This document shows, piece after piece, positions 2,921 to 60,666 of a stretch of DNA of 64,000 nucleotides. Numbering within the stretch: the first letter of the stretch is position 1; the number at the start of each line of letters is the position of its first letter. The notes beneath the pieces are model-generated. The model was not told the origin of the DNA. It ran no database searches and saw only the letters and a program-made list of their open reading frames with translations. A program made the position numbers and the translations under genes. The stretch covers positions 89,258 through 153,257 of IMG/VR virus record IMGVR_UViG_3300045921_000484; one strand, given 5' to 3'. The DNA is from a virus (Duplodnaviria > Heunggongvirae > Uroviricota > Caudoviricetes).

Positions 2921-4252
2921 ATGACTCCTCAACTTGAAAAGGTATTTTTCAATTATATTTTAAAGAATAAGAAGTATTTTGATATAGTTAAACCGTATTT
3001 TTTTCGAAATTCCGAAATCCAATTTGTATATGGAATTATTCGTCAATACATGATGAAAGGTACTGATGTTAAATTACCAACAGCTAGGCAAATTTGGGAT
3101 ATGATAAGTCTTGAAGATAAAGACGGTGTTATAACAAAGGAAATATTGAAGTCTATTTTACAGGTCGATTTGAAGGAATACGATGAAAAGAATTTTATTG
3201 AGCCTAAATTTAATGCATGGGTTTTATCTAATCGTCTAAAAACTGGTACTATTGACATTATTGATGAAACTAGAAATCTAGATCAGATATCTGACTTTGA
3301 TAAAGCTATTGAGGCAGCTAATAGAATTAAAGGTATTGTAGATGAGATGTCATCGACAAATTTCGTACAGGATGATGACTTGGGTTCTGATTTTGATGAT
3401 CCAGAAAGTCATGTTCAAGACTCATCTAAATTTAAAGTTAAATGTGGATTTGATACTATTGACCATATGTTAGGTGGTGGATGGGATATTCAAACTCTTA
3501 ATGTTATAATGGCTCAAACTAATGGAGGTAAGTCATTGTGGATGCAAAACTTTGCTGTTAAGGCAGCTGATATGGGTTATAATGTACTCTATGTCACACT
3601 TGAAATGAGCGAAAGAAAGGTTATGAAAAGACTCGGATCTATGCGTCTTAGAATTCCTATTAATGATTATGATAAGATGTCTAATGATACTGATATGATT
3701 AAAAAAAGAATCGCTTCTCTTAGTAAATCTGATGGTGGTAGTGATATCTTTGAGAAGAAGATTGGTAAGATAATAATTAAGTTCTGGGCAGCTGGAACAG
3801 CTACCGTTATTGATTTTGATAATTATATTCAAAAGTTAAAAGAAAAAAGAGATATAAAGATAGACCTTGTGATAATTGATTATATTACACTTGTTGCTCC
3901 TATTAAGGGATTAGGTGGTGATAATCTTTATACTAAAGGTAAACATTTAGCTGAGGGATTAAGAGCTCTTGGTGCTAAATATAAATGTCCTGTTATAACA
4001 GGAGTTCAGGTGGCGAAAGATGCTTGGAACTCATCTGATATAACATTAGAAAGTGTACCAGAATCTAAAGCAATTGCTGAAACTGCTGATACATTTTTTG
4101 CTATAATTAGAACAGAGGATATGAAGAGACAAAACTTATATAGGTTTAAGTTGTTAAAGCAGAGGGATGGTGATTTCTTAAAGTCACAAATTAGACTTAA
4201 TTTAAATCCTACTTATTTAACTCTTGAAAATGATCAATTTATTGATCAATAA
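2921..4252 (+). CDS. Replicative DNA helicase, DnaB family.
   Basis: C-terminal RecA-like domain with GFDTIDHMLGGG..IMAQTNGGKS (Walker A), the DnaB-specific TLEMSERKVMKRLGS motif (SLEMS box) and DLVIIDYITLV (Walker B). Confidence 0.8.
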   Translation: MTPQLEKVFFNYILKNKKYFDIVKPYFFRNSEIQFVYGIIRQYMMKGTDVKLPTARQIWDMISLEDKDGVITKEILKSILQVDLKEYDEKNFIEPKFNAWVLSNRLKTGTIDIIDETRNLDQISDFDKAIEAANRIKGIVDEMSSTNFVQDDDLGSDFDDPESHVQDSSKFKVKCGFDTIDHMLGGGWDIQTLNVIMAQTNGGKSLWMQNFAVKAADMGYNVLYVTLEMSERKVMKRLGSMRLRIPINDYDKMSNDTDMIKKRIASLSKSDGGSDIFEKKIGKIIIKFWAAGTATVIDFDNYIQKLKEKRDIKIDLVIIDYITLVAPIKGLGGDNLYTKGKHLAEGLRALGAKYKCPVITGVQVAKDAWNSSDITLESVPESKAIAETADTFFAIIRTEDMKRQNLYRFKLLKQRDGDFLKSQIRLNLNPTYLTLENDQFIDQ

Positions 4253-4323
4253 TAAATTTGAATATAAGTTATTTGTCATACTAATTATGGACATTCCAAA
4301 TAATAAAAAAATAAAAACACTTT

Positions 4324-5274
4324 ATGACTAAGAAATTTAGATATGATAAAGATGAATTTGATGATGAATTAGAAAGTGATAACGAAGATATCGTTAATGA
4401 TGTTCAATATGAACAAGAGGATGAAACCGATGATGATTCTGAAATAAGTATCAGTGATGATTATGAGGATATAAATATTGTCATTGAGATAGATGATGAG
4501 GACTTAATAAGTGATGAGGATAAATCCGAAATAACAACTGAATCTGAAGATGATATTGTTTTATCTAAACATAAAATTGAGGGAAAACACTCCTTAAAAT
4601 ATGATTCTATCTTCAAAGGTAAAAAAGAAGATCCTTTGGATGAAGAGGACATGTATAGTTATTCTGATGGATATTATAAGGAAACTATTGAGGTGGACAA
4701 GGCTTCTAACTATTATTTTGAATCAATAGATAATGAAAATTATATTAGAAGTAAGTTGGTTAAGGAAAAAGTTTATGTTGTTCTTAATGAACACACAACA
4801 ATTAACTTCCTTAACAATCGTAGAAAACCTTCTAGATCAGACTTTAATCATTATTATAGTTTATTGAAGACTCATTTAGCAGAGGAAAGTTTTACTAACA
4901 TTGAATTATTTAATGAGTTAGCTGTTTATTTCTCGGATAACCTATTTAATATGTTTAAGTTACTTGATAATAAGTGGAGGAACATGATAATTATGGAGTT
5001 ACAAGAACATATTGGTAAAAATTCAAACTCAAAAGATATCACTAATAGAAATATTTATGATGGAACTGAGATAGAATTTAAATGGATTGATGATACCGGT
5101 GAAGAGAAATTGATAACCGGAGTTGTAGTTGAAACTGATTATGAAAATTCAACTTTCAAAGTTGATTCATATGAAAATATCTATGAAGTTGATATAAGTC
5201 AGATAACAAAAATTCTAAATAATACTAAATTTAAGTATAATTTAAATAAACTTAATAATATAGATTTTTTATAA
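4324..5274 (+). CDS. Hypothetical protein with an extremely acidic N-terminal half.
   Basis: 316-aa ORF. D/E-rich first 120 aa, then an ordinary globular-looking C-terminus. Confidence 0.5.
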   Translation: MTKKFRYDKDEFDDELESDNEDIVNDVQYEQEDETDDDSEISISDDYEDINIVIEIDDEDLISDEDKSEITTESEDDIVLSKHKIEGKHSLKYDSIFKGKKEDPLDEEDMYSYSDGYYKETIEVDKASNYYFESIDNENYIRSKLVKEKVYVVLNEHTTINFLNNRRKPSRSDFNHYYSLLKTHLAEESFTNIELFNELAVYFSDNLFNMFKLLDNKWRNMIIMELQEHIGKNSNSKDITNRNIYDGTEIEFKWIDDTGEEKLITGVVVETDYENSTFKVDSYENIYEVDISQITKILNNTKFKYNLNKLNNIDFL

Positions 5275-5383
5275 GATATAAAAATTTTTTAGATGATTGT
5301 AAAAAACCTTATAAATTTTTATAAGTCAAAAATGAATTGAAATTTTAATTCAATATATAAAAAACAAAAAAAAATTAATTAGC

Positions 5384-7930
5384 ATGATAAAAGTTACAAA
5401 GAGAAACGGTAAGAAAGAACCATTGATGTTAGATAAAATTTTAGATAGAATTAATCAACAGACATATGGTTTGGATCAAAAGTGGATTGTACCTTTCGAA
5501 GTCGCGCAAAAGGTTATTGAAGGTATCACACCAGATATTAAAACCTCAGTTCTTGACCAATTGGCAATGGAGACTGCGGCATCACTTACAACAAAACATC
5601 CAGACTATTCTGTATTAGCAGCAAGATTGGCAATTACAAATTTACACAAAGAAACAAAAAAGAGTTTTTCTGAAACAGTCGAAGATCTATATAGATATAT
5701 CGATTCAAAGACAGGAAGACCATCACCAATAGTATCAGAAGGATTCTATAAAATAGTTAAAAAGCACGCTGATGAATTAGATTCAGCAATTGTTCATTCA
5801 AGAGACCATAACTTTGATTATTTTGGTTTTAAAACACTTGAAAAGTCATATCTACTAAAAATAAATGGTAAAGTTGCTGAGCGTCCTCAATATATGTATA
5901 TGAGAACAGCTATTCAAATATGGGGAGAGAATATTGAAAAAGTAATTGAAACATATAATGCTCTTTCAGAGGGATATTATACACATGCTACTCCAACATT
6001 ATTTAACTCTGGAACAACAAGACCTCAATTATCTTCTTGTTTCTTATTAGATACTGAGTCTGATTCTATTGAGGGTATTTTCAACACTCTTAAAGAATCA
6101 GCTCAGATTTCTAAAAATGCCGGTGGTATTGGTATTTCTTTTAATAAAGTTAGAGCTAAGGGTACCTATATTGCAGGTACTAATGGCTCATCAAATGGTA
6201 TTATTCCATTCTTGAAAATATTCAACGAAACTGCAAGAGCGGTTGATCAAGGCGGTGGTAAACGTAAGGGTTCTATTGCTATCTATATGGAGCCTTGGCA
6301 CGCTGATATTATGGAATTTTTAGACCTTCGTAAGAATCAAGGTAAAGATGAGCTTAGAGCTAGAGACCTTTTTTTGGCTATCTGGATGAATGACCTTTTC
6401 ATGGAAAGAGTTGAACTTGATGAATATTGGTCATTAATGTGTCCACATGAGTGTGTTGGATTAAATGATACTTATGGAAATGAGTTCCGTGATTTATATC
6501 TTAAATATGAAAAAGAAGGAAGATATAAGAAAAGAATTAAAGCAAGAGAAGTTTGGAATAAGATACTTGAATCTCAAATTGAAACTGGTACTCCTTATAT
6601 ACTTTATAAGGATTCAATTAATGAAAAGTCAAACCAATCTAACATTGGTATTATTCGATCTTCTAATCTTTGTGCAGAAATAGTTGAATCAACAGGTGTA
6701 ACTAAAATACAAGGTGATATATTAAAGAATAAAGAACTACTTGATAAATTAGGATTGGGTGAGTTCTGGGGTGAAGATTCAGTCAATGAAACTGCTGTTT
6801 GTAACTTAGCATCTATTGCTCTTCCTAAGTTTGTTAATAAGAACAAAACTTATAACTATAATAAGTTATATGAAGTTGCTTATAATGCAATTATTAACCT
6901 TAATAATGTAATTGATGTGAATTATTATCCGTCTAAGGCGGCTAAGTTTTCAAATTTATTACATAGACCAGTTGGTTTAGGTGTTCAAGGATTAGCTGAT
7001 GTTTTTTTCATGATTGGTATCCCATATGATTCTGATGAAGCTAAACAAATAAATAGAGATATATTTGAAACTATCTATTATGCAGCTATGAGAGCATCTT
7101 GTGATATGGCTAAAAAAGATGGAGCGTATGCTACATATGAAGGTTCTCCAGTTTCTCAAGGTAAATTACAATTTGATTTATGGGGTGTTAAACCTTCTAA
7201 GAGATGGGATTGGGATAAACTAAGAGAAGATATTAAAAAGTGGGGTGTTAGAAACTCTTTAACTACTTGCATAATGCCAACAGCTTCTACAGCTTCTATT
7301 TTAGGAAATGAGGCATCTTGTGAAGCACAAACATCAAATATGTACACAAGAGGTGTATTATCTGGTACATTCATAATGGTCAACAAATATCTTGTTAAAG
7401 AGTTAGTTAAATTGGGAATATGGAGTGATTCATTAAGAAAGAAAATTATTGCTGATAATGGATCAGTTCAAAACATACCTGAGATTCCAACTAATTTGAA
7501 AGAAATATTCAAGACAGTTTATGAGATTAAACAAAAAGATGTTATTGATATGGCTGCTGATAGAGGAGCGTTTATCGACCAAACTCAGTCTATGAATATC
7601 TTTATGGATTCTCCAAATTTTGCTAAGTTAACATCAATGCATTTTTATGGATGGGGGAGAAGAAATCTTATCATTGGTCAAGATGGTCAACCTATTATTC
7701 CACAAGGTGAAGGAATTCAGGTTATCTATGATAAAGATGGTAGGCCAAGATGTTATAGAGATAAAAAAGTAGCACTTAAAACAGGTATCTACTATTTAAG
7801 AAATAAATCTGCCAGTGACGCTGTTAAGTTTACTATTCAAGAGGAAGTTAAAAAGACAGTCGAGGAACAAATGGCAGAGATTAGTTGTAGCTTAGATAAT
7901 CCAGACGATTGTTTGGCATGTGGATCATAA
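5384..7930 (+). CDS. Ribonucleotide reductase catalytic (large-subunit-type) chain with N-terminal ATP-cone. Class Ia alpha or monomeric class II not distinguishable here.
   Basis: 848 aa. ATP-cone start (VTKRNGKKEPLMLDKI), active-site region SSNLCAEIVE, PxGLGV, C-terminal CxxC (CLACGS). No NrdB-like ORF in the window. Confidence 0.85.
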   Translation: MIKVTKRNGKKEPLMLDKILDRINQQTYGLDQKWIVPFEVAQKVIEGITPDIKTSVLDQLAMETAASLTTKHPDYSVLAARLAITNLHKETKKSFSETVEDLYRYIDSKTGRPSPIVSEGFYKIVKKHADELDSAIVHSRDHNFDYFGFKTLEKSYLLKINGKVAERPQYMYMRTAIQIWGENIEKVIETYNALSEGYYTHATPTLFNSGTTRPQLSSCFLLDTESDSIEGIFNTLKESAQISKNAGGIGISFNKVRAKGTYIAGTNGSSNGIIPFLKIFNETARAVDQGGGKRKGSIAIYMEPWHADIMEFLDLRKNQGKDELRARDLFLAIWMNDLFMERVELDEYWSLMCPHECVGLNDTYGNEFRDLYLKYEKEGRYKKRIKAREVWNKILESQIETGTPYILYKDSINEKSNQSNIGIIRSSNLCAEIVESTGVTKIQGDILKNKELLDKLGLGEFWGEDSVNETAVCNLASIALPKFVNKNKTYNYNKLYEVAYNAIINLNNVIDVNYYPSKAAKFSNLLHRPVGLGVQGLADVFFMIGIPYDSDEAKQINRDIFETIYYAAMRASCDMAKKDGAYATYEGSPVSQGKLQFDLWGVKPSKRWDWDKLREDIKKWGVRNSLTTCIMPTASTASILGNEASCEAQTSNMYTRGVLSGTFIMVNKYLVKELVKLGIWSDSLRKKIIADNGSVQNIPEIPTNLKEIFKTVYEIKQKDVIDMAADRGAFIDQTQSMNIFMDSPNFAKLTSMHFYGWGRRNLIIGQDGQPIIPQGEGIQVIYDKDGRPRCYRDKKVALKTGIYYLRNKSASDAVKFTIQEEVKKTVEEQMAEISCSLDNPDDCLACGS

Positions 7931-7934
7931 AAAA

Positions 7935-7957
7935 GGGAACTTCAGTTCCCTTTTTTT
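7935..7957 (+). terminator. Intrinsic terminator after the RNR gene.
   Basis: GGGAAC-ttca-GTTCCC hairpin followed by T7. Confidence 0.7.
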
Positions 7958-8279
7958 ATATAAAATATAAATTATAGGTACATATTGTTAAAAGTTAAAT
8001 TGATTTGAATGAAAAAAAATTACTATTTTAGCACTATAAAAAATCCATCTTTGAGAAAAACGAATTTTTCGAGGTTGATATATACTGAACAAATCAAAAA
8101 AAAATTCTAAAAGTTTAAAACTTATTTCAAATTATGGATATAAATTATCCGAATTCGACTTTAAACTTTTTGAAATTTTGGAGATAAAAGAAAAAAACGT
8201 TCTTTAACATATTAAAAAAATTCCAGTAGTGAATTGAAGGGTTACTTCGAAAATTGGATTTCAAAAAAAACTCTTTGAT

Positions 8280-8621
8280 AGATTACTCTGGTCTATATAA
8301 TTAAAAGCAAACATAGCGATAGTTTGAGATACTTCGTAAATTACAACTATGATTCATATCAAGTGTTTAGCTGACAGCGAAAACTACCTGTCCTGATAAC
8401 TAAATAAGTCAGGTTATAAACAGGTGAAAAGTCCGGAAAATACTCCGTTAAAAGATTAAGGAATTCATAAACTTCCTTCAAAAAAAGATATGAGTGAGAT
8501 GTACACTTAAAATATCGGCAAAGTTTCGACAGAATTCTTTGTATCGCTCAGACTAAATTTACTTGTTTGTAAAAATATAAAAGACCAGATTAAACAGAAA
8601 TGTTAGTCTGGTCTTTTTTTC
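8280..8621 (+). ncRNA. Candidate structured non-coding RNA (possibly Y-RNA-like) immediately upstream of the Ro60/TROVE gene.
   Basis: The 7958-8647 interval is the longest ORF-free stretch in the window. The 8280-8620 part is locally GC-richer. It contains the nested hairpin ACCTGTCCTGA..TCAGG..ACAGGT (8385-8427) and ends in its own intrinsic terminator (8582-8621). Confidence 0.3.
8582..8621 (+). terminator. Intrinsic terminator closing the ORF-free region upstream of the Ro60-like gene.
   Basis: AGACCAGA..(16-nt loop)..TCTGGTCT followed by T8. Confidence 0.65.
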
Positions 8622-8647
8622 TATAATTAAAATAAAAAAAAACATAT

Positions 8648-10099
8648 ATGTCAAAATTTAACACAACATTACCAAAACAGAAAACTTTAACTGAAAACCT
8701 TGCAGGTGGTCAAGCTTATGCTCAATCTGATGAGTTAGCTCTTGTATCATTGTTATTAACATCATTTGTTAATAACCAGTTTTATAGAAGCGCTAAAGGA
8801 TCTTTAGATGAACTTAAAAATCTAGCATCTAAAATAAAAGATAAGGAGTTTGTTGCTAAGGCGGCTATCTATGCTCGTGACCGTTTCGGCATGAGAAGTA
8901 TTACACACGCTCTTGCTGGTGAATTAGCCTCTGAGTTAAATGGTAAGGAATGGGGTAAGAAATTCTATGATAAAGTAGTTGTTCGTGTTGATGATATGAC
9001 TGAGATTCTTTCATATTACCTTGCTTATAAGACTAACAAGGATAATCCAAAATTCCCAAATGCCTTAAAGAAGGGATTTGCTAAGGCTTTTGATAAATTT
9101 GATGGATATCAGTTAGCTAAGTATAGAGGTGAGAATAAGGAAGTAAAACTTGTTGATATTGTTAATATTGTTCACCCAGTTCCTACACAGAGGAACAAAG
9201 AAGCATTGTCTTTACTTATAAAGGGTGAGTTAAAGAATGCTGATACCTGGGAGTCTAAGTTGTCACAAGCTGGTCAAGTAGCTGAGTCTGAGGAAGATTT
9301 AGCATCACTAAAGGCAGATGCTTGGAAGAGTCTAATTTCTGAAAGAAAAATTGGATATTTTGCTTTACTAAAAAATCTTAGAAACATCATTTTTCAGGCA
9401 CCAGATTCGCTACCATCAGCTTGTGAATTACTAACAGATGAAAGATTAATTTCTAAGTCTAGAGTTCTTCCATTTAGATTTGCCACAGCTTATGAAGAAA
9501 TTAGTAAGTTAGGTTCTTCTACTGAGGTTAGAAATGTTCTTGTCGCTATCAATAAGGCATTGGATATTTCAGTTGTTAATGTTCCTATATTTGATGGTGA
9601 TACTCTTGTAGTATTAGACGTATCTGGTTCTATGAGTGGCAAGCCATCCGAAATAGCTTCATTGTTTGGTGCCATCTTAGCTAAGTCTAATAACTGTGAT
9701 GTTATGACATTCTCAACTAACTCACAGTATGTGTCTTACAATCCTATGGATTCTGTAATGACCATTAGAAATGGATTTAAATTTTCTGGCGGTGGTACCA
9801 ACTTTAAATCTATTTTCCAAAATGCTAACAAGAAGTATGATAGATTTATTATTCTATCGGATATGCAATCTTGGATTGGATATAATACTCCCTCTGCTGA
9901 GTTCGCTCAATATAAGAAGAAGTTTAATGCAAATCCGTATGTTTACTCATGGGACCTTGCAGGATTAGGAACATTACAATTTCCAGAAAATAATGTCTTT
10001 GCTTTAGCTGGATTCAGTGATAAAGTATTTGATATTATGAAGCTAATGGAAACTGATAAGAAGGCTCTTTTAAATGAAATTAAAGCTATTCAGTTTTAA
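8648..10099 (+). CDS. rsr: TROVE-domain (Ro60/Rsr-like) protein with C-terminal von Willebrand A domain.
   Basis: N-terminal TROVE-like signature (LAGGQAY....L.SLLL..F.NNQFYRS). vWA MIDAS motif VLDVSGSM (DxSxS) near residue 320. Size 483 aa. Confidence 0.7.
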   Translation: MSKFNTTLPKQKTLTENLAGGQAYAQSDELALVSLLLTSFVNNQFYRSAKGSLDELKNLASKIKDKEFVAKAAIYARDRFGMRSITHALAGELASELNGKEWGKKFYDKVVVRVDDMTEILSYYLAYKTNKDNPKFPNALKKGFAKAFDKFDGYQLAKYRGENKEVKLVDIVNIVHPVPTQRNKEALSLLIKGELKNADTWESKLSQAGQVAESEEDLASLKADAWKSLISERKIGYFALLKNLRNIIFQAPDSLPSACELLTDERLISKSRVLPFRFATAYEEISKLGSSTEVRNVLVAINKALDISVVNVPIFDGDTLVVLDVSGSMSGKPSEIASLFGAILAKSNNCDVMTFSTNSQYVSYNPMDSVMTIRNGFKFSGGGTNFKSIFQNANKKYDRFIILSDMQSWIGYNTPSAEFAQYKKKFNANPYVYSWDLAGLGTLQFPENNVFALAGFSDKVFDIMKLMETDKKALLNEIKAIQF

Positions 10100-10103
10100 C
10101 AAA

Positions 10104-10131
10104 AAACCCACTTTTTTAAGTGGGTTTTTTG
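10104..10131. terminator. Intrinsic terminator (A-run/T-run on both sides, potentially bidirectional).
   Basis: AAACCCACTT-tttt-AAGTGGGTTT then T-run. The same stem sequence recurs at 58801-58819. Confidence 0.7.
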
Positions 10132-10338
10132 TTAATCTTTCCATTCATAGAATGATTGAATGCTTACATTTTTTGTCTTTTTATTTTACTTGAAGTAGAA
10201 TGGTATATCACCCTACTTGAGATGATGAAATATCACACACTTTAGCTATCGATAGAGTTAATTAGTTAATTAGCGAAATATCAATTTCTCCATATTAACT
10301 AATAACTATTGACCTTCAGCATTTTCAAAATTCGTATC

Positions 10339-11172
10339 TCATTTAAATCTTGAATTTCTTATTATTAATTTAACATGTGTTGAGTGTGTAATTTTCACAC
10401 CAAAGTCTTTGAATACCTGTTCTTGTAAGAATGGTAGTATAAAAGTTTCCTCTTTTGTTATCTTATATGAAGATGGTATTTTCTTTTTAAGTGTTTCTAA
10501 AGTAATAGGTAGATAGTTTTCATTTACTTCTCTATTCCAGTTATCTGTGTATTTATATTTCAATAGGAAGTGAACAAATGTTCTATAACTATTTCCTATA
10601 TTTTCCCATCTATCTTCGAATGATGATAGATATCTATTATCTGCTTTCTTTCTTATTTTTTTAACATCCTCTTTGAATTTCTCTATTTCATTTCGGTGCA
10701 TTTGCACAGATGGTATCATATCTCTTATTGTTATCCATTTGAAATCACCACCAAATACTTGATTGTCCCAGAATTTTCTAACTACATTTGGATGTGAATA
10801 TGAATATACCTCATGAACAACTGAACTTAGGTTTAATAACGGACTTCTATATTTAGATACTTCTAATATAACATCACTCCATTTATTTGTTAATAATGCT
10901 TTATCTCCTAATTTATCAGATGCCTTTTTGAGCATTTCACTATCAAGATCATACCCTATTATCTTAACATTTGGTTTTAACATTTGAATCTTTGATAGGA
11001 AAGTACCATTAGCACATCCGAAGTCAACAATTACATCAAAGTCAACATCATTAATGAAGAATAGTTTGTCACTCATCCCTTTTTCCATTTCTGATATGTA
11101 TTTATCATAATTAGAGATAGGTTTCTCACCAACTAACTCTTCTAGGAATAATTCCCAACTAAGTATGTTCAT
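10339..11172 (-). CDS. Class I SAM-dependent methyltransferase (substrate unknown).
   Basis: Motif I VIVDFGCANGTF, motif II-like KIIGYDLD. 277 aa. Confidence 0.6.
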   Translation of the reverse strand: MNILSWELFLEELVGEKPISNYDKYISEMEKGMSDKLFFINDVDFDVIVDFGCANGTFLSKIQMLKPNVKIIGYDLDSEMLKKASDKLGDKALLTNKWSDVILEVSKYRSPLLNLSSVVHEVYSYSHPNVVRKFWDNQVFGGDFKWITIRDMIPSVQMHRNEIEKFKEDVKKIRKKADNRYLSSFEDRWENIGNSYRTFVHFLLKYKYTDNWNREVNENYLPITLETLKKKIPSSYKITKEETFILPFLQEQVFKDFGVKITHSTHVKLIIRNSRFK

Positions 11173-40114: not shown

Positions 40115-40185
40115 GGTCTGGTGGCTGAGCATTTAGGCGGAGCCCTGCAAAGGCTCATACGGTGGTTAAAATCCATCCCAGACCT
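40115..40185 (+). tRNA. tRNA-like element with canonical cloverleaf geometry and anticodon GCA (Cys). Divergent D- and T-loops, possibly a pseudo-tRNA.
   Basis: Acceptor GGTCTGG/CCAGACC (7 bp). Anticodon stem GAGCC/GGCTC with loop CTGCAAA (U33, GCA, A37). 4-nt variable loop. T-stem GGTGG/CCATC with 7-nt loop TTAAAAT. 15-nt D-arm. 71 nt total. GC-rich island followed by T9. Confidence 0.5.
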
Positions 40186-40327
40186 CTAATTTTTTTTTAT
40201 ATCATTTAAGAAATTCGAAAATCGATCTAAAAGGATACTCTTAGATTTGGTCTTAGTTATAAAGTTTACAAAGTTTCTCTAAGGAGAAAAGAATCAGGAT
40301 TCAAACTATCTATTTAATTAAAATTTA

Positions 40328-58830: not shown

Positions 58831-60666
58831 TTATAATCCGTTTTGAAATTTATATTTTTCATATCTATCAACTAAGTCGATCAGGAATTTATTTCTTACA
58901 ATATCTTCAACTCCAAACTTATGACTATAAACATCACTTAGTTTATTTTTATAGTTTTGTTGACTTTCCGTTCCATCGTCTTTGAATTCATATTCACCGG
59001 TTACAAGTGATATAAAATCTAAAAATTTAGAATCTTTTTTCTTAATATCATATTGTGATATGTCACCCATCATAACAGCTTTTGAGTTTTTTCCTAAACG
59101 AGTTGACCATAACATTAATTGATGCATGTTACAGTTTTGAGCTTCATCTAATAACATTATTGAATCATCATAGGTAGTACCCCTCATATATGCAATAGGC
59201 TCTACAACTATTTCACCAATTGCCTTCATAAATTCAAATGATTGCTTTCCTAATATTTTCTGAAATGTTGAAAAGTAAGATTGCATATACGGATCTGTTT
59301 TTTCTTCTATTGTTCCAGGTAAGAATCCTAAATTTTCACCACTTTCTTGTATAGGTTTTGTTAGAATTATCTTTTCAATTTTCTTATCAGCTAATAAACC
59401 AATTGCTGAATAACAAGCAACAAATGTGTTATGTGTTACTATATAATCATTTGTTAGATATAACCTTGATGGACTATCTACCATTATACACTGAGCTTCT
59501 TTCTTTCCGATTAATTTAGCAGATGTAATATACCTATTAGGTTTATATTTTGTTTTTGGTATAACCCTATCCAATTTTCTTTTAAATGAAAATGGATTTA
59601 TGTTTGGGTTCATTGTTACAGTTATTCTATATGATATCTTTTCTGATTTTTTTACACTTGGGTTATATGGTGAATGGTCAGTTGCTATGCCACCCAAAGA
59701 CTGTATCAACTCCTTAACATCATTTACTAGCCTAATAGAGTTAGAGCCAAAATAGATAGATCCATCTTTATCTATGCTACCATCAGAATCCATAAGACCC
59801 CTTAGTAGCTTAATTCTATTATCAAGAGAGTTATACTTATATTCATTTGGTATAAACTTATTATCGGATTTCAAATTATATAATCCTAATTCTTTTAAAT
59901 ATTTAATATATTTATTTTTATTTTTTTTAATATCAGATGTGACAGAGTAATTATATAAGTCTCTGTTTGTTAAAATCTCATATTCTTCTATACTATTTTG
60001 AAAATAATTTATTATTTCCTCATCAGATGTTGTTAATTCTACATGTTCTCTGAAACAACCATCTCCTAATAAAATTCCAAATAGGTAAGGGTCTATTTCA
60101 ACTTTTCTTTCATTTAGATTTACTGGTGATGTTATGGGTATTGTGTAATTCAATCTACCTCTTTTTGTATATAGACTCTCAATAATTTCTAACGTTGTTT
60201 TGACAGATCCTGATTTTGGATTTTTACTTTTTCTATCTTTTTCACTGGTAACGAACCATAGATGATCAGAACAACATTCAACTTTGGATCCATCTGAGAA
60301 TGATAATTCCCAAATATCTTTTTTACCCTGTGGGAATACACCAGTTACAATGGTTGAATTGCCATCATCTGATATGACTCTATCTCCAACTTCTATATCA
60401 CCCATAGTTATCCATCCATTTGGTGTTAATATTAGTGAATCTAATGGTTGAGCTTTAGCAGTTCCAGCAGGTCCTTGACATATAGTTAGCGTATTATTCC
60501 TTATTCCATTGTAGAGCTCGTATTGTTTAGGTGTTAGTGATATTATTTGTTTTATTTTTTCCCACTCTTGTTTGTTGATTCCTGATTTTCTAGGAGTTCT
60601 GTTACGAGTAAAATCGTCAATGCTTTGTTCGATTTCTCTTTGATTTCTTTGCTTTTCTTTGCTCAT
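58831..60666 (-). CDS. phoH: PhoH-like ATPase interrupted in its P-loop by an intein with LAGLIDADG homing endonuclease.
   Basis: N-extein ..LTICQGPAGTAK (Walker A) then intein AQPLDSLILTPNG.. .. YIVTHN. C-extein TFVACYSAIGLL..IILTKP..LDEAQNCNMHQLMLWSTRLGKNSKAVMMGDISQYD (PhoH motifs). Extein total ~269 aa. Confidence 0.8.
   Translation of the reverse strand: MSKEKQRNQREIEQSIDDFTRNRTPRKSGINKQEWEKIKQIISLTPKQYELYNGIRNNTLTICQGPAGTAKAQPLDSLILTPNGWITMGDIEVGDRVISDDGNSTIVTGVFPQGKKDIWELSFSDGSKVECCSDHLWFVTSEKDRKSKNPKSGSVKTTLEIIESLYTKRGRLNYTIPITSPVNLNERKVEIDPYLFGILLGDGCFREHVELTTSDEEIINYFQNSIEEYEILTNRDLYNYSVTSDIKKNKNKYIKYLKELGLYNLKSDNKFIPNEYKYNSLDNRIKLLRGLMDSDGSIDKDGSIYFGSNSIRLVNDVKELIQSLGGIATDHSPYNPSVKKSEKISYRITVTMNPNINPFSFKRKLDRVIPKTKYKPNRYITSAKLIGKKEAQCIMVDSPSRLYLTNDYIVTHNTFVACYSAIGLLADKKIEKIILTKPIQESGENLGFLPGTIEEKTDPYMQSYFSTFQKILGKQSFEFMKAIGEIVVEPIAYMRGTTYDDSIMLLDEAQNCNMHQLMLWSTRLGKNSKAVMMGDISQYDIKKKDSKFLDFISLVTGEYEFKDDGTESQQNYKNKLSDVYSHKFGVEDIVRNKFLIDLVDRYEKYKFQNGL
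59428..60453 (-). mobile_element. Intein (~342 aa, Ala1 type) with two LAGLIDADG motifs.
   Basis: Block A AQPLDSLILTPNG (no Cys/Ser1). Block B-like CCSDHLW. LFGILLGDGCF and LRGLMDSDGSI. Terminal THN followed by +1 Thr. Confidence 0.7.

Follow-up and report, generated by a model that had tools for sequence, protein, structure and literature searches.

Particles made of Ro60 and Y RNA are conserved from bacteria to humans, and the role that the effector domain of the RNA plays in them is poorly understood. A gene resembling Ro60 lies in the DNA analysed here, a stretch of 64,000 nucleotides (nt) from a phage of the class Caudoviricetes (positions 89,258 to 153,257 of IMG/VR record IMGVR_UViG_3300045921_000484), which we call the window, and the interval in front of this gene raises the question whether the phage supplies its Ro60 with Y RNAs of its own. 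The original prediction, made from the letters of the window, had proposed one Y-RNA-like non-coding RNA in the 690 nt upstream of the gene. We find this proposal supported and in need of refinement, as the comparative evidence points to two RNA genes instead of one and confines the structured part to 8223-8620. Judged from sequence comparison, this segment very probably comprises two Y RNA-like (Yrl) genes and an intrinsic terminator, directly upstream of the phage Ro60 gene.

The open reading frame (ORF) at 8648-10099 (+ strand) encodes a product of 483 amino acids (aa), the N-terminal part of which matches the Pfam profile of TROVE, a HEAT-repeat ring (PF05731; E 3.2e-18, 66.6 bits, cut-off 23), and the C-terminal part that of vWA_Ro60 (PF25045; 31 bits, cut-off 27.7), with DVSGS, inside VLDVSGSM, as the DxSxS of the metal ion-dependent adhesion site. 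It aligns end to end (residues 12-476; E 2.3e-20) with the structures, by crystallography and cryo-EM, of the Ro60 of Thermus phage phiLo (phiRo60; 9KOP and 9L5Y), its nearest solved relative, and matches among solved structures extend to 2NVO (Deinococcus radiodurans Rsr) and 1YVP (Xenopus Ro60). From these profile matches and alignments we identify a genuine Ro60/Rsr protein, as had been proposed from its TROVE and vWA signatures. The 717 nt between the stop codon of the upstream ribonucleotide reductase (RNR) gene (7930) and the Ro60 ATG, 7931-8647, are indeed the longest interval of the window that lacks an ORF of at least 60 aa, since what looks like a gap of 3 kb at the end of the window belongs to an ORF of 1007 aa that continues past the edge. 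That the 3' half of this interval is richer in G+C holds marginally at best (0.31-0.32 versus 0.287 for the window, the Ro60 ORF itself being at 0.34).

Ro60 genes of phages are common in databases, and metagenomes contain homologues of the window's protein by the thousand, over 100 of which are about 80% identical to it. Only one deposited phage genome gives a match, that of an uncultured phage of 634,780 bp, which is 76% identical over window 8211-10133, a segment that includes about 440 nt of non-coding DNA. Our related set consists of 35 viral contigs with Ro60 relatives at 59-83% identity, several of them of 260-480 kb, and related contigs reach 476-635 kb; as the clade we define the 32 loci whose Ro60 is at least 64% identical to that of the window. 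Upstream of the gene the DNA is conserved from about 8210 to the ATG, the 3' half (about 400 nt) aligns across more than 30 viral loci, and the identity of the intergenic DNA to related phages about equals that of coding sequence. Exactly two copies of TACTTCG, 82-95 nt apart and followed 246-320 nt on by a terminator, were found in 31 of the 32 clade loci, the last one (L147) being truncated upstream and not counted. With one exception, L077, the cassette stands upstream of a Ro60 gene on the same strand in all related loci. Comparison across related phages thus bears the prediction out, as the region is conserved and its helices covary.

The cassette is built of three units, module A, module B and the terminator. 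Module A (8223-8291, + strand), a predicted YrlB-like Y RNA, is a 69-nt stem-loop, encoded on the strand of Ro60, that ends 357 nt short of the ATG of that gene. Its closing stem P1 (CCAG/CUGG) is followed by a bulged U (U8227), by AGUGA opposite UUACU, by an internal loop and by an inner stem (8236-8242/8270-8276), on which sits a terminal loop of 27 nt that opens with UACUUCG (8243-8249). The minimum free energy (MFE) fold recovers the stem (z = -2.7), and in relatives P1 is 89% and the inner stem 97% paired, 5 of the 7 inner pairs having changed on both sides. Short modules without a tRNA-like part in other arrays, e.g. L024 2302-2363, are its counterparts.

Module B (8307-8570, + strand), a candidate Y-like RNA of 264 nt closed by a long-range stem, ends 78 nt before the ATG, again on the strand of Ro60. 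P1 pairs GCAAACA with UGUUUGU (8307-8313/8564-8570) and precedes the bulged U8314; inside it AGCGA (8315-8319) faces UUACU (8559-8563), and P2 (AGUUUGAG/CUCAGACU, 8321-8328/8547-8554) leads to UACUUCG at 8330-8336. P1 is 98% paired, and in 5 of its 7 pairs both partners have changed (GAGGACA/UGUCCUC in L011, for instance); P2 is 96% paired with 4 of 8 pairs so changed, and the fold of the module is better than that of shuffled sequences (z = -4.2), as is that of 8290-8625 as a whole (z = -5.6). The predicted intrinsic terminator, which had been recognised before and is present at 8580-8620 (+ strand; AAAGACCAGA...UCUGGUCUUU and then a U run), closes the cassette 27 nt before the Ro60 ATG. Its 11-bp stem is 94% paired in 31 relatives, with 3 of 11 pairs changed on both sides and a variable loop; a consensus terminator scan did not flag it, the loop of about 13 nt being probably beyond the 3-8 nt limit of that scan.

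When 72 pairs were tested in an alignment of 31 sequences, with controls in which the 3' partners were slid by 1-3 columns, paired cells amounted to 85.7% against 35-48% in the controls and the covariation score was 0.245 against about 0.08. For four of five measures none of 500 shuffles came up to the value observed; for the fifth (further pair types) 3 of 500 did. Compensatory changes on both sides were found in 38 of the 72 pairs, and these bear on whether the conservation might reside in the DNA itself, as promoters, operators or a signal for replication or packaging, or in a missed small protein gene. Such a reading could draw on two blocks farther upstream, 8034-8085 and 8163-8189, that are conserved without clear RNA structure, and on small ORFs of 31-40 aa that are present on both strands. 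Neither DNA-binding sites nor coding explains the two-sided changes, however, hairpin sequences are wholly replaced while their pairing is kept, and 7931-8647 contains no ORF of at least 50 aa; we therefore regard this reading as very improbable.

The likeness to Y RNAs lies in the ends of the two modules. Both open alike, with P1, a bulged U and AGYGA ... UACUUCG (UACUUCG in each case), and both close with UUNCU and the second strand of P1. More distant phage Ro60 genes (36-62% identity) are preceded by arrays of one to four modules with the same signature, which open with (N4) U AG(C/U)GA N3-9 (G/A)NG(U/A)UACUUC(G/A) and end with (A/G)AUUU(U/A)CUC and the complement of the first four bases. 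The phage Yrl consensus that we derived, P1 / bulged U / AGYGA / N3-5 / P2 / UACUUCR ... P2' / N5-9 / UU(U/A)CU / P1', is matched by module A at 8223-8249 and 8270-8291 and by module B at 8307-8336 and 8547-8570. Within 60 nt most of the distant modules have a T arm (GGUUCGAAUCC; T loop GGTTCRANYC), to which many add a closed stem and a D arm (AGCUCAGUUGGUAGAGC); the order T arm, closed stem, D arm is what defines YrlA (PMC4201824). RNAalifold gave for these distant modules P1 with the bulged U, P2, the T arm and an acceptor-like stem, with compensatory change in 23 of 26 pairs.

A covariance model built from 14 distant phage modules (R1) links these RNAs to those of bacteria on one side and to the window on the other. 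It finds Salmonella YrlA (25.8 bits, E 0.004), and it finds 8223-8291 at 33.6-33.7 bits (E 7e-5 over 207 kb, 9e-7 over 2.5 kb) in an alignment that matches both stem strands of module A and deletes 75 positions of the tRNA-like domain; the equivalent module A was matched in every clade locus searched. The 5' strands of Salmonella YrlB and YrlA (GCGAAUG...GAUUACAUC and GGCGCGAAUGCUGG..GAUUACAUC) also resemble that of module A (GUGAAUUG...GGUUACUUC / CCAGUAGUGAAUUGAAGGGUUACUUC). When viral contigs were scanned for the 5' motif, 119 stretches came up, and in about half of these the examined DNA contains Ro60, almost always downstream and on the strand of the motif; among phage records, by comparison, Ro60 occurs in only 100 of 50,697. 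The 5' motif of module B (TAGCGATAGTTTGAGATACTTCG) fits this Ro60-linked pattern. The same scan of genome contigs returned mostly chance matches, with Ro60 nearby in 9 of 120; copies linked to Ro60 do occur in assemblies labelled bacterial, e.g. metagenome-assembled genomes of Saprospiraceae and Nibricoccus (labels taken as given). Module B, moreover, lies immediately upstream of the terminator and Ro60, the place that a canonical YrlA takes in sister lineages.

Several observations weigh against the presence of two Yrl genes. The Rfam models YrlA, YrlB and Y_RNA are without a match in 7900-10400 even at E<=10, nor was there a Y RNA match in the whole window at gathering thresholds. The 5'-strand motif of bacterial Y RNAs, GNCGAAN0-1G (PMC4201824), is approximated only, by UAGUGAAUUG in module A and UAGCGAUAG in module B (in A GUAGUGAAUUG, where U replaces C; in B AUAGCGAUAG, with CGA and then U), and the modules of sister lineages range over UAGCGAAAUG, UAGCGAUAAG and UAGUGAGAAG. 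R1 gave no full-length match to module B with filters on or off, a result that is uninformative rather than negative, 264 nt being probably too long for this model. The single-sequence MFE of module B pairs the outer strands otherwise and lies 3.2 kcal/mol below the comparative fold, and the interior helices of B are only 53-85% paired in a sequence-only alignment. Finally, the exceptional locus L077 has no Ro60 gene in the 5.6 kb downstream of its RNAs (11.6 kb of the contig were examined).

As to the first of these points, the Rfam YrlA model scores the distant phage modules at 33-45 bits (E 1e-3 to 5e-7), whereas the Rfam models give authentic Salmonella YrlA and YrlB 70.9 and 105.5 bits. 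Since it remains below gathering even on canonical phage modules, we do not read the missing match in the window as absence. As R1 does not report module B, three things carry the reading of B as a Y RNA: the composite motif of its two ends, its covarying closing stems and its position. An alternative main fold of B, AGCGAUA (8315-8321) with UAUCGCU (8542-8548), was rejected, as it is not conserved (the consensus being GUAACGCU or GUGACAGCU) and crosses the well-supported P2.

The position of the effector in module B is taken by a domain of about 210 nt (8337-8546, + strand) with hairpins at 8365-8384, 8385-8426, 8458-8478, 8492-8508 and 8518-8542, connected by conserved A-rich linkers such as GGUGAAAAGUCCGG at 8423-8436. 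The nested hairpin on which attention had been drawn (ACCUGU-CCUGA...UCAGG...ACAGGU) is present at 8386-8425 and is part of the structured RNA, but it belongs to this variable domain and not to the predicted Ro60-binding site; it and the other inner hairpins occupy equivalent positions in relatives with wholly different sequences. A GUCCGGA tract also exists, at 8431-8437 and not at 8441-8447. The YrlA-type tRNA-like module that the proposal of a Y RNA had brought with it is absent from both RNAs: neither has a T arm or a D arm, the B domain has no match to Rfam tRNA or YrlA at E<=10, and the T-loop sequence GGTTCRANYC is missing from the modules of every clade member. Within module B, window 8423-8452 (GGUGAAAAGUCCGG...AAUACUCCGUUAAA) is a loose copy of the 5' Y motif (GYGAA ... 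UACUUCG) and is similar to GGCGAAUGCCGG of Salmonella, and GGUGAAAAAG is nearly invariant across the clade. In two close relatives (L005 and L020) the variable hairpin equivalent to window 8385-8426 contains (GG)UUCAAUCUC, which is absent from the window; that of L005 can be folded as a T-arm-like stem-loop and is possibly a remnant of a tRNA-like domain.

A domain of this kind invites the view that module A is a Y RNA and module B an unrelated structured RNA, regulatory or catalytic, that does not bind Ro60: B has no tRNA-like domain and no Rfam or R1 match, no Y RNA so far described resembles its interior of about 210 nt, and P1 and P2 are not formed in the single-sequence MFE of the window. 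Yet its ends bear the signature of module A and of canonical modules (closing stem, bulged U, AGCGA, second stem, UACUUCG, 3' UUACU), it is precisely its 5' pattern that goes with Ro60 in viral contigs, the covariation of P1 and P2 is strong, and it occupies the position of the canonical YrlA of sister lineages, before the terminator and Ro60. An unrelated module B is accordingly quite unlikely in our judgement. Taking B as a Y RNA, we tentatively entertain a further step, namely that it founds a distinct class of long Y RNAs confined to this huge-phage clade, in which a conserved domain of about 210 nt with several hairpins has taken the place of the tRNA mimic of YrlA and recruits a different partner or, together with the invariant terminator, forms a Ro60-sensing switch. 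If this were true, the Ro60-binding stem would be a transferable anchor to which phages attach new effector modules.

The terminator itself suggests another role for the region. The structured RNA might act mainly in cis, as a leader or attenuator of Ro60, in which Ro60 binds the Y-like motifs and sets the extent of stopping at 8580-8620, a form of autoregulation in which the region would yield no stable RNAs acting in trans. The terminator lies 27 nt before the ATG with no promoter called between them. Its 5' arm, GACCAGA (8583-8589), does not vary among 31 relatives and is the full complement of UCUGGUC (8287-8293), found at the 3' side of module A. Such a match could mark an antiterminator, or it could be a mere consequence of both segments being conserved; no covariation stands behind the pairing. 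The Salmonella Y RNA genes (L156 719-1037), which fill the interval from the rsr stop (709) to the next ORF (1039) on the same strand, also count in favour of a cis role. In the same Salmonella Kentucky fragment we noted a third Y-like RNA after YrlB and YrlA (L156:924-1037), which has a T arm and an altered D region and scores 31.7 bits with Rfam YrlA, below gathering.

Against a mainly cis-acting leader stands L077 (IMGVR_UViG_3300015610_000750). This locus is syntenic with window 3561-8619, comprising a DnaB-like gene, RNR, both RNAs and the terminator; L077:5483-6017 corresponds to window 8034-8619, modules A and B and the terminator are 79% identical, and the similarity ends at 8619. As the cassette is kept here with no Ro60 in the examined downstream DNA, it appears to be maintained on its own, which makes a purely cis-acting attenuator less likely. 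In addition, the spacing from terminator to ATG is longer by 90-220 nt in three loci (L016, L020 and L111), and where P1 of module A is altered to CCG/CGG (L030, L034 and L036) the terminator arm is unchanged, so that the alternative pairing is without covariation. Closed 5'/3' stems, furthermore, are a hallmark of stable Y RNAs. We therefore consider attenuation as the main function unlikely, although the roles of attenuator and Y RNA are not mutually exclusive.

How the cassette and Ro60 would be transcribed is suggested by what precedes each. Two conserved blocks lie upstream of module A, both on the + strand. The first, 8034-8085, contains a hairpin (GAAAAA-CGAA-UUUUUC) and GGTTGATATATAC and is 75-87% identical over 51-112 nt in about 12 related loci; the second, 8163-8189, reads AAACTTTT-N14-ATAAAA, is found at the orthologous position of most clade loci, about 20-40 nt 5' of module A, and is a candidate promoter of the cassette. 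No sigma-70 promoter was called at 8163-8189 in a promoter scan; the element occurs once in the window, not above chance, and the 8034-8085 block does not recur elsewhere in the window. The two blocks, which resemble each other (AAAC..TTTTT..GAGGT..ATATA) and do not recur elsewhere in the window, may have the role of promoters or operators. As recurrent phage promoter motifs, GGTTGATATATA and ACTTTT-N-ATAAAA were both discarded, neither being enriched in the window. Since no promoter is evident in the 27 nt before its ATG, Ro60 may depend for its expression on read-through of the terminator. The Ro60 leaders of the relatives are A/T-rich before the ATG and lack a Shine-Dalgarno sequence, which suggests a host of Bacteroidota type.

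We propose that each of the two RNAs would be closed by pairing of its 5' and 3' ends, and that the adjoining conserved bulged-U helix, in which 5' AG-U-AGYGA lies opposite 3' UUNCU-CU, would be the likely docking site for the phage Ro60 ring, as it holds the place of the Ro60-binding site of YrlA and YrlB. In a Y RNA it is usually the distal part by which an effector is tethered or gated. In module A this part would be a conserved loop only, as in YrlB, and in module B the multi-hairpin domain of about 210 nt would stand in for the tRNA mimic; for the function of module B our model is Yrn1. If the examples of D. radiodurans, Salmonella and Thermus phage phiLo are a guide, Ro60-Y RNA particles would then assemble and either recruit a host exoribonuclease such as polynucleotide phosphorylase (PNPase) or control access to the cavity of Ro60, by which RNA turnover would be reshaped during infection. 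No PNPase, RNase, RNA ligase or RtcB was found by Pfam among 23 other ORFs of the window, and as neither an exoribonuclease nor an RNA ligase is among them, a host enzyme is the likelier partner.

Other phage Ro60 loci vary the same theme. Up to six or seven Yrl-like modules occur in L114 (989-5937), L100 (2631-2974) and L102, and some of these have their arms in the natural tRNA order (D then T), unlike YrlA, from which we conclude that effector domains vary widely among phage Y RNAs. In L043 a genuine tRNA gene (6649-6723; 54.6 bits) stands directly between two YrlA-like modules. The Ro60 match is about 2130 nt long instead of 1449, or is split, in L031, L032, L033 and L034 (2501-4630), which points to about 680 nt of inserted sequence, an intron, intein or homing element, within the gene.

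The gene upstream of the interval, 5384-7930 (+ strand), had been named as an RNR gene and is recognised by Pfam as the RNR large subunit (ATP-cone, Ribonuc_red_lgN and Ribonuc_red_lgC, E 2.8e-200). Its own apparent intrinsic terminator, GGGAAC-UUCA-GUUCCC followed by U7, is visible in the sequence at 7935-7957 (+ strand), outside the Y RNA unit. On the other side of Ro60 a terminator scan places a bidirectional hairpin terminator at 10096-10135, with weak Rfam matches of terminator type on both strands. Elsewhere in the window, the only Rfam match at gathering threshold is a single tRNA-Cys (GCA) gene at 40115-40186, and a PhoH-like ATPase gene (58831-60666, - strand) has in its middle a LAGLIDADG homing-endonuclease domain that looks like an intein.

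The study of phage Ro60-Y RNA particles has just begun, with one structure paper of 2025, and the locus overturns nothing established. It indicates that huge phages keep a two-gene Y RNA cassette beside Ro60, that a simple consensus (bulged U, AGYGA ... UACUUCG ... UUNCU) detects such RNAs across many phage lineages, and that the tRNA mimic, supposedly a hallmark of widespread bacterial Y RNAs, is replaced in the clade of the window. The seed alignments gained can serve for annotating such RNAs in viral metagenomes, and the locus supplies RNAs that can be synthesised, together with a protein, to ask what Ro60 reads and what the variable part recruits.

Among known RNAs, module A is most readily compared with YrlB (RF02565; Salmonella Typhimurium, Chen et al. 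2013/2014). Both are short (about 70-80 nt) and encoded beside rsr/Ro60 on the same strand, and both combine a 5'/3' closing stem, a Ro60-recognition motif on the 5' strand (in module A an approximate one) and then YUAY (UUAC) without a tRNA-like domain. Module A carries UAGUGAAUUG where YrlB has GCGCGAAUG and is too diverged for Rfam YrlB to match at E<=10; it stands upstream of Ro60, whereas Salmonella YrlB is downstream of rsr, and it belongs to a phage, with no RtcB in the examined context, unlike the setting of YrlB. Module B shares with YrlA (RF02553, PMC4201824; structure 6CU1) the closing stem, the bulged-U/AGYGA helix, the second stem and UACUUCG. It lacks the tRNA mimic (T arm, closed acceptor-like stem, D arm), in place of which it has about 210 nt of other hairpins, and at 264 nt it is roughly double the size of YrlA-type RNAs (about 110-145 nt).

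In its overall plan module B recalls Yrn1 of D. radiodurans, whose distal multi-stem-loop module contacts the KH/S1 domains of PNPase in the RYPER complex with Rsr. Both RNAs are modular, with a predicted or known Ro60-binding stem and a distal multi-stem-loop module, but Yrn1 has retained the metazoan-type helix in both its strands, together with a stem-loop like a T arm, and module B shows neither. Metazoan Y RNA (RF00019) and the RNAs of the window have in common a terminal stem and a single bulged nucleotide on the conserved 5' strand beside the Ro60 contact site. The metazoan helix GGUC[C]GA/UUGACC, with its bulged C, has no supported counterpart in the window RNAs, which have no match to the Rfam model. 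A candidate for a bulged-C site of this type, GUC[C]GGAA (from 8431) with UUUCGAC (8524-8530), was set aside, as UUUCGAC sits in the covarying hairpin 8518-8542.

The closest parallel is found in phages themselves. YrlA genes were reported in 22 phages in 2014 (PMC4201824), and in Thermus phage phiLo two RNAs upstream of phiRo60, Yrl1 and Yrl2, bind Ro60, in a complex with the host PNPase (PMC12135203; 9KOP, 9L5Y; 2025), so that a phage Ro60 with Y-like RNAs upstream is already known. What the window adds is a diverged Y RNA pair in huge phages that existing Rfam models miss, a consensus for the predicted Ro60-binding module of phage Y RNAs, and a long predicted Y RNA in which another conserved domain appears in place of the tRNA mimic. 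The RNAs of phiLo were chosen by a CGAA motif and single-sequence folding and their binding was then demonstrated, whereas those of the window are known from comparative evidence alone, and we liken them to Yrl1 and Yrl2 by layout, not by direct sequence comparison. In that layout the two phages agree: each has a Ro60 gene and, in the non-coding region upstream of it, two Y-like RNAs.

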